From Callorhinchus milii (Eukaryota), in NCBI RefSeq assembly GCF_018977255.1, contig NW_024704742.1, positions 133,922,001 to 133,986,000 of the forward strand: DNA of 64,000 nucleotides, given 5' to 3'. The translations under genes were made by a program, and so were the position numbers. Position 1 is the stretch's first letter. The number at the start of each line of letters is the position of its first letter. A model generated the notes under the pieces. It was given only the letters and a program-made list of their open reading frames with translations. It searched no databases and was not told where the DNA came from. Shown in pieces: positions 50,101 to 56,100 of this stretch.

Positions 50101-53100
50101 CGTTCAGACGTCTCAAAGTGCTTCACAGAATATACTGTATACTGTATACTTTGTGGGCGAAATGCAGCAGCCAATTGTGCACAGCAGTGTCCCCGCAAAC
50201 AGTCATGGATTGAGTGACCAATTGTTTTGTTTTTGGGAGGGATTATTAGCCCGGAAAGCGATCCGCCGATTGATTAATCACTGGGTTCCTACTTATTGCT
50301 AGGTAAACAGAGGCGTGTGGAGTAAGGAAACTTGCCTAAGGTTTCATCCCGCCTGTATACGCCAATGCACCACTCTCAGTGTGTTAATTGTTCACCTTCC
50401 CCTCATCCATTACAACAATAATATTCCTTGTATTCGATACAGATCCTCATCATGCTGCTGAGACATCTCAAAGTGCTTCACAGGATTTACTGGAAAGTGA
50501 AGTGACCATGGATTTTATGGGTGAACAGAGCGGTCAATTTGGGCACATCAGTGTCTTATACCATTAATCACAAACAGCCATGAAGTGAACAACCAATCTT
50601 TTTTCCAGGGTTGGGGGAGGTGAATTGACACCAGGACACCGGTGGAAACTCCTTCTCTTTTCATAAAGGCCACGGGATCTTTAACCGCCACAGGGAGACA
50701 CAGCATATATTTCTTTTTTAGTCTGTAATTTCTTTTTGATGGCTTTTAAACACAAACGATCAGGAAAAGAGATTAACATGAGACAATTTGACTTCCCAAT
50801 TCTAGCCAGCCAGTACATCAAGTCAGACAACATCCTGAAAACTGGCACTTGCTCCACAACCTGCGAAGATTTCCAACAGATCAAGCAGACCGTAATGCAG
50901 TTGAAACAAAAGGTAAAAACTGGTTACGAAGATGGTCGTTCACACAATGTGAGCACCTGGATGGGTCAATTTGTTTATTGTGTAGAAGCTGCTGCTAACA
51001 CAGAAACCACACTCTTAAATAAGGAGCTAAGACCAGACCACTTGCTAACAATGCTCCAAATCAAATTGGTCATCGTTTCATGGCTGTTTGTGGGACATTA
51101 CTATGCGCAACTGTGCTGCCACATTTGCCTACAAATACGCAGTCACTCTATTTCGCAGTAACTCCTGTTAAGCACTTAGAGATGTGACTAGGTCCTAAAC
51201 TAAATGCAAGAATTATTAAGAAAGTTAACCCAGAAAATACTTTTGGATGCTTTCGGAGACGTTTAGATGATGAGGACATAGGTGTACAGTCACAATGGAA
51301 AACAAGAAGTTGTCTTTACCCAGAGGGGAATTAATCACTGGAACAGAGTGTCAGAAGTTGAAGCCACAACACTGGGACTGATTTAAATAGCAGCTTGATG
51401 CTGTGATGGGAGGACGATAGGGTGGGTGTTCTGGAGGCAGGAGATCAGATAGGTTGAAGGCTTTTCTTCTTCCAAGCTGCTCTTGTGACTGTTGAGCCGA
51501 ATGACCTATTTCTGTGCTGTATCACTGTATGTAACTATTACATATCCTCTTGCATGTCCTGAGGATTGTACTTTGCATCTCCCCACTCCTAATATGTGCC
51601 AACACAACACATTGCCCTAAGACTGGTTGGGCCCTGAATTCCTTCCAATAAAGGGTTGCATCCAGGTCAGCTAAGCATTTTACCATATTAACACAGATGT
51701 CATAAGGCGCAGGAAGTTGAAGCGCAGAAGGGGGCCATTTGGCCCTTTGTGACCGTGGTTCCCCCACGTACAATGGAGTCTGTACTCAAGTCATGAATGT
51801 GGAATGTAGCTCCACACAATAGCTCCAGTCTACAGACATTTGCCCGTAATTTGACTTTTAAATGCAGTGATTTAAAAGAAATTGTATTATCCATCTGTGA
51901 TGTGACCTGTTGCATTTCCTCCAAACTTGAACTTGAACGAGTGGGGGTGGGGGTGAGGAGGCATTGGTGGTGGGGGCGCGGGGGAGGGGGTTAGAGGATT
52001 ATTTTCCTTTAATTCCAAAGATGGATCAATAACAAAGACATGTTCAATTGCAAGGAATTTGTTTCAAAACGAATAAGATCGAATTTCTCCAAGCTAGTTC
52101 TCGGCGACATCGAACCTATGGCTTGGGAGTTTGACCAGAGTAAAGTAGATTTGACAACTACCTGTTGCCCTACGTCACTGGTGGCCAATCATTTTGGTCG
52201 CCAACAAAATAAATTTTCTCGATTGAATATTTCTTGATCTATGCTGTAAATCAAGAAATATTCAATCAACAAAATCAAGAAATATTCAGTCAACAAATAA
52301 GTGGAAACAAACTATTGATTGAACACGGACACATCCTGGACTCAAGGAAATGTTCCACGGGCCACTTCTTGACAGCCCAGTGAGCCACTTCTGGCCTGTG
52401 GGCCATAGGTTGGCCACCATTATTCTGCACCATTATTTATTCCACAACATATAAAGTTTATTTTATAGTATATTCTGTGAAGCACTTCAAGACGTCTTTC
52501 AGATGGTAGGGAGGTGACCTTCACCCCCTAGCACCTCCCTATCTCTCCGACCTCCTCACTCCCCAATCCACCACCCAGCGCCTTCGCTTGACTGGCACCG
52601 GCCTCCTGCTCATCCCTCACACCCTCCGCCCCACCATTAGAGGTCGTGCTTTCAGCCACTACTCCCTGAAAGTCTAGAACACTCTTCCTCAATACCTCTC
52701 TCTTGACCCTCTCTCCCCTTTCTCAAGTCTTGCCTGAAAACTTTCTCTTTCAACAGTATTAACAGTCACCTTCACCCACCCCCACGGCTCAGAGTCAGGC
52801 TCCACCACTGTTAAGTGCTCTGAGACGCTACCCTGAGTGGGGGTCATATATATATATATATATAGAACATATATATAAAGTGCAAGTTATTGTTGTCTTG
52901 AAGATGTGATAAGGCACAATAACAAAGGCAAGGATTATTATTATAAAGTACTATGCAATTGCAAGATGTTGAAGTAACCTTGAATTCCATTTCACTCAGA
53001 TCACTTTACTGCCCAACAATGTTGGCAATATTGGCAAGCAGCTGTCAAATAGAGAGAAGTTACTTGCGTCCACAGTTACAGTTCTGGAATTCCAGGATCA

Positions 53101-56100
53101 CCTGGGCCCCCAGGGCCTCCAGGTAAGGAACAACTTGGCTGCATTGATAGAATTTTTGCCCTTGGCTCGGAAGGTCATGAGTTCAAGCCCCACGTTGGGA
53201 TTTGAGACTCGCACTTTAGCCTGACACTTGAGCAATGCAAGGGGAGCAACGAGTAGTATAAAGTATTGTCCTTCAAATCAAGGTGTTTCTCCCCACCTCC
53301 CCTTTTATGTGGTGGGTGTTAAAGATCCTGTGGCCTATTTCACAAGGAAGGGAGTTACTCCAAATGTTCTGGACATCAAACCCCAGAGAAAATTGGTCAT
53401 TCATGTCACGGCTGTTTGTGGCACACTGCTGTGGGGAAATTGGCTGCCACATTCACCTACAAATATTCAGTCACTACACTTTGCAATAAACCCTGTGAAG
53501 CACTTTGAGTCATTTGACGATGTGACAATGCGATAAGGCAAGGATTATTATTATTATTATGGAAATCATTGATAATATAATGAATTATTATCATAATAAT
53601 CATTACACTTAGTATAGCACCTTTTAAGTCAGGAGGATGTCTAAAAGCATTCCGCGGGATATACTCTGAAGTGCAGGATTGTGTGGGCAAAACTCTTATT
53701 ATAAAGAGTATGCAAACAAGACTGAGAGGTGTCAGAGGAGATTGTTGGAGGTGTCATCCTTCGGATGAGATATCAAACCGAGGTCCTGTCTACCTGTTCA
53801 GGTGGATATTGAAAATCCCATGGCATTATTCAAAATAAGAAGGGTATATCTCCCGGTGTCCTGGCCAACAATCCCCCAAATAAAATTGGTCATTCACTTC
53901 ACGACTGTTTGTGGGAGATTGCTGTGCACAAATTGGCTGCCGTATTCGCCCACAAATACATAGTCACCCCACTTCACGTCCTCCTGACGTTAAAGGCGTT
54001 ATACCAAATGCCAGGATTATTATTATTATTAATGAAATCAAGGGTAGTCCAGAGAGTTAGTTGTTCTTGGGTCATAACCCTAACTTAATCCATTATGAAG
54101 AGCTAAAATTGATTTCTGTTTTGTCTACAAGGCAACTGGTCAGACAAAATACACCCATAGGAAATATCAGAGGAAATATGGGAGGCTCTGGCTAATACAT
54201 CAGGAGCTCTGCGATCATTACACTGACCACTGGTGGAGAGCAAGTGTTAGCCCATATAACCCACATTGCCCAGTGAGCCAATGTCTAGAGCATTCAAATT
54301 AAGAGAGTAGCAAATGAGCACATGGAGAGGTTAGGAGAACTATTGTTAAGGTTATGTAATGCCCAGCTGGGAGTGGTGGTTAAGGCAGAACCCATAGTAG
54401 TTTTCAAAAGGGACCTAGATAAACAATGAAAAGGAATTAGCGTCAGTAGTATAAAGAAAAGATAGGTAAATTAAACTAAAGGATTGCTCTTAAAAGAGCC
54501 TGCACAGACATAATGGGCCAACTTTCCTTCTGTCCTATAAATTTAGTGATAATAATAATAATCCTTGCATTTGATGTAGCGCCTTATCACGTCTTCAAGA
54601 CATCTCAAAGCGCTTCAGGATATACCGTAAAGTGAATTTGACTGTATACTTTTGTGGCATCTGACTGGGCGGATATTCCTGTCATCTGTTGAGAGGTATT
54701 AGTTTTGCATCTTGTTTTTTCCTGGCAGCTGACTGCCTCCTATTAATAACATGACCTTTGGTTTGAATGTGAGGAATGTGGTGAGATGATCTTGCTGAAA
54801 TGCTCTGTTTGGCATCTATTTTACACATCGCAGCGAGAGTTACTAATAGTTTTCTCTGACTCTCTGCAGGTCTGTCAGGACCTAAAGGAAACCCAGGCCC
54901 AAGGGGACCACCAGGAGCTCCAGGGCAACCAGGTTCCAGAGGGTTAATGGGGCCCGTAGGCCCTTCACCTGATATATCTCACATCAAGAAGGGAAGGCGA
55001 GGGCCAGTGGTCAGTATCCGTTCTCCAAATCAGCTTAACTTTCCTGAAATTACACTCACTGTCCAACTTGAGTGAGTTTCCTCCCCACCTCACCCCCAAT
55101 TCTTTGTCAATGTCGTTCAGTCAATAGAGCTCTCGCCTCTGGGTTCAAGACCCAGAAGGTTCTGGGTTCAAGACCCATTGGAGTCAAGACTTTGAGGGGA
55201 TAATAATCCTTTCCCCAAAAAAATTTGGTCAATCAGTCCATGACTATTTGCAGGGACACTGCTGTGCACAATTGGCTGGCCCTTTTCATCCATAAAATTC
55301 AGTCAATCCACTTTACAGTATATCCTGTGAAGCGCTTTGAGACATCTCAATTACATGATAAGGCTGGCTCAAGAATTATTATCATTTATTTATTATTTGG
55401 GCTAACATTGCAGACAATATCAGTGCTGCGTTGTTGGAGGAATGCAGGTTTCCTTAGGAAGAGATGTTATGCCTGTTCAGTTGTTTAGGTGGATGTTAAT
55501 GATCCCATATTTAACAATTCTCCAGTTGTTCACTTCATGTTTGTCTATGTGCAAATTGGCAAATGACCGCAGTCACTACACTTTACAGGAATTGCTGTGA
55601 AGCATTTCTGGCACTTTGATGCGATAGGCACTACATCAAATGCATCTGATATACACATTAATTACAATTCGCAGTATTTGCAAAATGTATTAGAAGGTGT
55701 ATGAGGCAGCCAATTTCTGCGCAGTAATGTCCCACAAACAGCCGAGAAGTGAATGACTAATTTTATCTGGGGGATTGTGAGCCAGGACACCGGGCAAAAC
55801 TCTCTTTTCGAACAGCGCCACAGGATCTTTGGCATCTAGCTGAACAGGCAGACAGTATCTTGATTTGACATATCATTCCAAGGAGAGTACCTCTGACAAT
55901 GCAATGCACTGCACTGGAGGGTCAACCTAATGATAGCCTGCGTGATTATCACCAGTGATAATTATCACAGAGCGCAACTCATTTTTCACCCGGAATACCG
56001 AGGAGGGTTCACTTTTAATAATAATGATACTAATAATCCTTGCATTTGATATAGCCCCTTATCATGTTGTTGAGACATCTCAAAGTGCTTCACAAACTAT

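Follow-up and report, generated by a model that had tools for sequence, protein, structure and literature searches.

An apparent frameshift that would remove the CCBE1 collagen domain in the elephant shark is very probably an assembly error

Introduction

Mice that lack the collagen domain of Ccbe1 phenocopy the null (PMC5501841), and the same source underlies the view that CCBE1 enhances ADAMTS3-mediated cleavage of VEGF-C. The CCBE1 allele written in the assembly of the elephant shark, Callorhinchus milii, resembles these deletion mice and the alleles of Hennekam syndrome: native sequence ends at residue 236 and both Gly-X-Y segments are removed. It differs from them in that the elephant sharks sampled here lack the truncation.

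Single-base consensus errors in genome assemblies produce spurious frameshifts and false gene loss. The elephant shark break is like such errors in that one base is gone from a short run, the gene is otherwise fully conserved and the lesion is absent from independent short-read contigs as well as a spliced one. It is unlike them in the shortness of that run, just two bases, and in that it may stem from a heterozygous Asn/Thr substitution. The closest comparison is the public C. milii CCBE1 protein (XP_007901295.1, equal to A0A4W3HJ17; here P0121), which comes from the same gene: the window, by which we mean the whole 64,000-nt stretch analysed, is short of one exon 7 base relative to it, and sequencing runs give Asn at codon 236 where P0121 has Thr.

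Results

Judged by its sequence, the gene in the window is the C. milii orthologue of CCBE1, predicted to be intact once a single base is supplied. With one unknown base placed behind position 53071, exons 3–11 match P0121 at 333 of 334 residues and differ from it at the X alone. P0121 is full length and, Thr 236 aside, identical to the window over exons 3–11 (exon 11, 100%); two sources hold the identical sequence. A tree of 50 chosen rows, midpoint-rooted with no outgroup and with P0121 standing for the window gene, splits into two clades, each with support of 100/100. The window gene groups with the CCBE1 of sharks, rays, coelacanth, ray-finned fishes and tetrapods, apart from a paralogue clade, on a branch of ordinary length (0.17). 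Downstream lie an L-type lectin gene (PF03388 exons, C1:134.039–134.044 Mb) and a complexin gene (PF05835 exons, C1:134.069–134.081 Mb), both matched at family level only and both of families also found near the paralogue; in human, the neighbours of CCBE1 are LMAN1 and CPLX4.

The plus-strand gene carries the expected domains across nine exons of the window, with exons 1–2 lying outside it at C1:133857316–133858103. Exon 3 (44062–44114, 53 nt) is followed by exon 4 (45700–45834, 135 nt), which encodes an EGF-like domain (PF14670, E 8.5e-4, below cut-off), and exon 5 (46827–46964, 138 nt), which encodes a calcium-binding EGF domain (PF07645, 43.5 bits, cut-off 27). Exon 5 scores above the cut-offs of both PF07645 and PF14670, giving the N-terminal EGF-like and calcium-binding EGF pair, and the cysteines are invariant in protein alignment A1. 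A protein search with exon 5 returned solely fibrillins, fibulins and LTBPs among the best 120 of 155 matches. Exon 6 (50806–50912, 107 nt) leads into exon 7 (53000–53122, 123 nt as assembled), which encodes a linker and the start of the first Gly-X-Y segment. Exon 8 (54870–55009, 140 nt) is collagen-like (PF01391, E 5.1e-5, 23.4 bits, cut-off 27.2), and exons 9 (57868–57903) and 10 (59895–59930), 36 nt each, continue the Gly-X-Y pattern. Glycines occupy each third residue in two segments, 241–283 and 294–324. The coding part of exon 11 (61361–61597) holds a conserved C-terminal motif (residues 324–351), identical at 24–26 of 28 positions, and ends at the natural stop, 61595–61597.

As assembled, the reading frame breaks inside exon 7. 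The original prediction had read a 123-nt exon entered in phase 0 ahead of an exon 8 that needs phase 1, and this is what we find, with exon 7 flanked by AG and GT. Translation of the exon places ITLLPNN...KLLAS in one frame and the Gly-X-Y run in another. Spliced as written, exons 3–11 give 277 aa and stop at TAA 54945–54947 in exon 8, a stop in frame solely through the missing base. The exon 8/9 junction follows 62 nt further on and the last junction after 134 nt; a stop at these distances meets the usual rule for nonsense-mediated decay. One base behind 53071 opens the frame through to the natural stop. All internal splice sites of exons 3–11 are AG/GT, as had been stated of the other sites. 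Skipping of exon 7, considered as a rescue, does not restore the frame and runs into a stop after 236 aa. The prediction had also pointed to an ACAGTT-ACAGTT repeat abutting the site. The repeat is there and the missing base falls just before it, with no role for the repeat shown; slippage of the tandem unit was rejected as the cause, the gap being one base rather than six.

Other sequenced samples carry the missing base. We aligned four public C. milii runs (out of 24 listed runs, some of them from other organisms) to the region as Logan contigs, a form that drops rare variants: X1 and X2 from study P1, genomic-type and shallow (depth 8–9), X5 from study P2, and X6, whose contigs leave the site uncovered. 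An extra A behind 53071 stands at full depth in all three covering runs (X1, 7.94/7.94; X2, 9.2/9.2; X5, 38.8/38.8), and neither the deletion nor a Thr allele at codon 236 appears in any of the three. None of the compared runs is identified as the assembled animal, so the extra A is shown in other samples. An AA run is thus written as a single A at 53071–53072; exon 7 is 124 nt in these samples and codon 236 is Asn, exactly the base, place and exon length that had been foreseen and set down beforehand as the outcome that would refute a real loss. The headline claim that the collagen domain is lost, with effects on lymphatic evolution, therefore falls.

A spliced contig speaks to the exon itself. 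In X5 record 17, exon 6 runs directly into exon 7 at acceptor 53000, with no mismatched letters and one gap, and both ends of exon 7 are matched; the RNA status of X5 is presumed, and the record nonetheless skips intron 6 at its splice sites. Contig pieces from X5 and X6 end at the exon 8 donor. Had the 123-nt exon been real, another splice site might have rescued the frame: three AGs would do so (exon starts 52966, 52975 and 53053), the last being the internal AG at 53051–53052, which would leave a 70-nt exon. The prediction had called this TAG (53050–53052) weak for want of a pyrimidine tract, rightly so: it has 6 of 17 pyrimidines, and the alternative AGs as a group 6–8 of 17, where the true acceptor has 12 of 17. 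It is unused in the one spliced contig. Since that contig is spliced at 53000 and contains the extra base, a cryptic acceptor is unneeded; for sample X5 this rescue is refuted, and we give it practically no weight overall.

The window differs from the runs at further positions. A second gap, 157 bp from the site in intron 7 (CC, 53228–53229), likewise marks bases absent from the window and present in X1 (7.94/7.94) and X2 (9.17/9.17). The comparison gave 13 indel rows in the region; of the 12 listed, ten fall in repeats or reach partial depth in individual runs, and we left these uncounted. Two of the ten, at 51235 and 54477, likewise mark bases that the window lacks, and are weak.

Comparison with relatives points to a gene under ordinary constraint. 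All 31 shark and ray records compared (isoforms included) have Asn at codon 236; an alignment of exon 7 from related species had been proposed in the original prediction. Exons 8–10, which follow the break, are identical to seven shark and ray rows at 51–53 of 70 residues, and 23 of 26 listed collagen glycines are invariant in all 17 other alignment rows. We found no second lesion in exons 3–11 and no sign, at the protein level, of relaxed constraint downstream of the break. A fixed pseudogene or collagen-less protein in this lineage has the assembled sequence alone in its favour, together with some prior plausibility from the lymphatics of cartilaginous fishes, described as incompletely separated from veins (PMC9299638). 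Against it stand the in-frame allele in all three covering runs, the spliced contig included, the full-length P0121, the lack of further lesions in exons 3–11, the branch length of 0.17 and the conserved glycines. We regard fixed loss as refuted and its residual probability as negligible.

A decayed copy of exon 7 elsewhere in the assembly (G000:C4:34974479–34974598) has one base more at the same point. It is about 82% identical in exon and intron alike, is missing the acceptor and the first 42 nt of the exon, and has no other CCBE exon within 40 kb. On these grounds we rejected it as a haplotig or functional duplicate.

The elephant shark also has a second, intact CCBE gene. This paralogue, already annotated as 'CCBE1-like' (XP_007908237.1, contig C22 of assembly G000), shares the phases of exons 3–11 and the domains of the window gene at 58% identity over 309 residues; it belongs to the separate 100/100 clade and has an in-frame exon 7 of 118 nt. 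The clade spans sharks, rays, chimaera, coelacanth and ray-finned fishes, with no named tetrapod among the matches listed. On sequence comparison, its existence and fish-wide spread are well supported, and it was apparently lost in tetrapods. Our literature searches found nothing on a second fish CCBE gene (ccbe2, ohnologue) or on CCBE1 in the elephant shark; in the portion of a 2026 bioRxiv preprint on Ccbe1 that we draw on, 'paralog' is applied solely to vegfa.

Discussion

The missing A is, with high probability, a consensus error of the assembly. The original prediction had ranked an assembly error or recent allele above pseudogenisation, and that ranking is supported by the extra A, found in both genomic-type runs and in the spliced contig. 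Other samples have the base, and from this we infer the error: a two-base A run in exon 7 would have come out one letter short, which mimics a frameshift. The full-length P0121, the additional base in the decayed C4 copy, the conserved sequence after the break and the second gap nearby also speak for it. The real exon 7 would then be 124 nt with normal splice sites, yielding a predicted protein of 401 aa that carries EGF domains and a pair of Gly-X-Y segments. By orthology, this protein would help ADAMTS3 to activate VEGF-C.

Two routes could have produced such an error. Plain under-calling of the AA run would account for somewhat over half of our confidence in it. The other route, to which we give a smaller though substantial share, starts from an animal heterozygous for A/C at a site between an A and a C (Asn and Thr alleles): the two alleles, which share one run-compressed sequence with the window, would have been collapsed. 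In a toy model where indels cost less than substitutions, 9 and 30 of 100 trials with a heterozygous A/C site yielded the deletion, and none of 100 with a homozygous site did. With unit edit cost the deletion arose in 0 of 100 for all four settings; the heterozygote route thus hinges on the assumed scoring.

The Thr of P0121 bears on whether the assembled animal instead carried a rare one-base deletion, most likely heterozygous, whose product would be lost to nonsense-mediated decay or lack the collagen domain, a null either way. Any base put behind 53073 yields Thr at codon 236. The Thr could therefore come from a protein model in which an unknown base had been put in to bridge this very gap; the gap would then also be in an earlier assembly, and the deletion would have been seen twice. 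Such an allele would also fit the position of the stop 62 and 134 nt before later junctions, which satisfies the usual decay rule; Logan contigs are unable to show rare alleles, and the intact C22 paralogue might buffer a null. However, none of the three covering runs carries the deletion, and P0121 is identical in two sources that differ for the paralogue (324 versus 326 aa). These are therefore separate annotations, and a shared patch is unlikely. Patched models carry a low-quality flag in their titles under the RefSeq naming convention, and the title of P0121 has none. We consider a rare deletion allele improbable. More speculative still, at very low probability, is that a low-frequency CCBE1 null segregates in elephant sharks and is tolerated via the C22 paralogue, which may serve ADAMTS3-dependent activation of VEGF-C or VEGF-D.

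The apparent break in CCBE1 is no real feature of the species and matters little as it stands. The assembly is widely used as a reference for early jawed vertebrates, and one base in it needs correcting to keep CCBE1 from being scored as lost in chimaeras. An in-frame, spliced CCBE1 in a holocephalan fits an ancient VEGF-C activation module. The fish-wide second CCBE gene is a candidate cofactor, either redundant or specialised, in the lymphatic and secondary vessel biology of fishes.

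The window holds a CCBE1 gene that appears broken as assembled. Exons 3–11 occupy 44062–61597 on the plus strand; exons 1–2 are found some 64 kb before the window begins. Exon 7 as assembled (53000–53122, plus strand) is 123 nt long and is entered in phase 0, a mismatch with exon 8, which requires phase 1. Spliced as written, the native sequence ends after residue 236 and the frame closes at a TAA (54945–54947, plus strand) 62 nt upstream of the next junction. A single unknown base added behind 53071 restores an open frame as far as the natural stop. No further lesion is present, and the internal splice sites of exons 3–11 are all AG/GT. 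Rechecked phases, TAA and splice sites agree with the sequence description of the break in the original prediction.

Exons 3–11 equal the public C. milii protein P0121 (XP_007901295.1), named CCBE1 by its source databases, at 333 of 334 residues, with 100% identity across exon 11. In a tree of 50 selected proteins, built by maximum likelihood without an outgroup, P0121 groups as sister to nine shark and ray sequences in a clade with tetrapod CCBE1 (100/100). Downstream of CCBE1 in C. milii come genes matching the L-type lectin and complexin families; in humans LMAN1 and CPLX4 follow CCBE1. Both families also neighbor the second C. milii CCBE gene described below.

Independent sequencing runs contain the missing base. 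We aligned four of the 24 public runs found to window positions 50750–55060, and three cover the exon 7 site; the fourth, X6, covers exon 8, with 53071 outside its cover. All three covering runs insert one A behind 53071 at full local depth (X1, 7.94/7.94; X2, 9.2/9.2; X5, 38.8/38.8). X1 and X2 are separate samples from one study, and their contigs (617 and 249 nt) span the exon and its introns. X5 comes from a second study. In its 232-nt record 17, exons 6 and 7 are spliced together at the annotated sites, with one gap and no other letter difference from the window, so this contig is a spliced, in-frame piece. The real exon 7 is therefore 124 nt long and codon 236 reads Asn. All 31 listed records from sharks and rays, counting isoforms, have Asn here, as do 13 of 17 other rows in our CCBE1 protein alignment. 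An extra base and a 124-nt exon had been named beforehand as evidence against a real loss, and X1, X2 and X5 carry both. The extra A in every covering run refutes fixed loss of CCBE1 in the species, which we consider virtually excluded. Equally improbable is frame rescue through an internal AG in exon 7, a route raised earlier and refuted by the same alignment, in which the spliced X5 contig carries the extra base.

The A is thus present in other samples, and we infer that the assembly lost it. It is unlikely, though not negligibly so, that the assembled animal carried a private deletion allele: no examined run is known to derive from that animal, contigs omit rare variants, and depth in the genomic runs is low. 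Loss by the assembly could have followed two routes. Most simply, a two-base A run would have been under-called. Alternatively, a heterozygous A/C site flanked by A and C would have collapsed; once runs are compressed, the window and both alleles, Asn and Thr, have one identical sequence. A toy consensus model used 30 noisy reads per trial. With indels penalized less than substitutions, a heterozygote yielded the deleted form in 9 and 30 of 100 trials and a homozygote in 0 of 100; at unit cost, each of the four settings gave 0 of 100. Heterozygous collapse may, on this modeling, be the source of the gap. No Thr allele at residue 236 was seen in X1, X2 or X5.

P0121 is full length and carries Thr at residue 236, versus Asn in X1, X2 and X5. 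This Thr may represent a second allele, one substitution from the Asn codon. P0121 could instead be a model patched across the same gap, conceivable because any base placed behind 53073 gives Thr; we regard this as rather improbable, though not negligible. The P0121 sequence is identical in two sources whose models of a CCBE1 paralogue differ (324 versus 326 aa), so the P0121 entries were apparently annotated separately, on an assembly with 124 nt. The paralogue model is listed on a contig equal in length to C22, and P0121 on none, which would fit P0121 being a model from another assembly, untranslatable from this one.

A decayed genomic copy of exon 7 also bears on its length. The 3' part of the exon and flanking intron recur on contig C4 of the same genome (G000:C4:34974242-34974641, minus strand; L002:1264-1663), a copy also placed at G000:C4:34974479-34974598. 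The copy is about 82% identical to CCBE1 in exon and intron alike, has neither the acceptor nor the opening 42 nt of exon 7, and is surrounded by repeat fragments, with no other CCBE exons within 40 kb. It has one base more than the window at the break point, where its codon reads Asp, which supports 124 nt as the probable older state. Downstream of the break, exons 8–10 share 51–53 of 70 residues with seven shark and ray rows, and of 26 glycines listed, 23 do not vary in any of the 17 other rows, indicating that constraint has not slackened.

CCBE1 varies in length among sharks. Many shark records (P0177, P0179, P0194 and cluster members) have an exon 7 three residues, or one Gly-X-Y triplet, shorter, and several stop about 16 residues sooner than ray and chimaera records. 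These differences are real in-frame variation.

The introns of the window gene carry differences and repeats of their own. The window lacks a CC at 53228–53229 in intron 7, 157 bp past the exon 7 gap, that X1 and X2 carry at full depth; this is either error or polymorphism. Many single-base differences separate the window from X1 and X2 across introns 6 and 7 (50919–54848), with none listed in exons 6, 7 or 8; they are ordinary polymorphism with conserved exons. Introns 2 and 9 contain broken reverse-transcriptase-like frames (32000–34257, minus; 19351–20434, plus; 36369–36953, minus; 58119–58983, plus), which, judging by motifs, we take to be LINE-type repeats.

C. milii also encodes an intact second CCBE gene. 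It lies at G000:C22:6095961-6117483 on the plus strand (also L026:7961-8013, L023:8650-9280 and L024:1445-9483), with exons 3–11 located in the same phases as CCBE1. Its 320-codon open frame is identical to P0265 (RefSeq 'CCBE1-like', XP_007908237.1), and the protein is 58% identical to CCBE1. The tree puts this protein in another clade, also supported at 100/100, whose other members come from sharks, rays, coelacanth, gar, bowfin, sturgeon and teleosts. At 140–180 kb from the gene are an L-type lectin and a complexin gene, and the CCBE gene is inverted relative to the CCBE1 arrangement. Clade and neighbors would fit a whole-genome duplicate that arose before cartilaginous and bony fishes diverged, in a tree without an outgroup. 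Ninety-three of 238 CCBE proteins compared score better with the paralogue clade, and none of its named proteins is from a tetrapod among the best 120 of 277 and best 120 of 320 matches; the paralogue was likely lost in tetrapods. Zebrafish is missing from the nine clusters listed, an absence that carries no weight. The gene is already annotated in databases and appears unstudied: we found no paper on it, with PMC10328876 and bioRxiv 10.64898/2026.10.14.759138 among the texts checked, in a search outside subscription journals and supplements.

A real, fixed deletion would have been of consequence. Mice lacking the Ccbe1 collagen-like domain are reported to phenocopy the Ccbe1 null (PMC5501841), and cartilaginous fish lymphatics are described as incompletely separated from veins (PMC9299638). 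The CCBE1 frameshift belongs to this assembly, not to the species.
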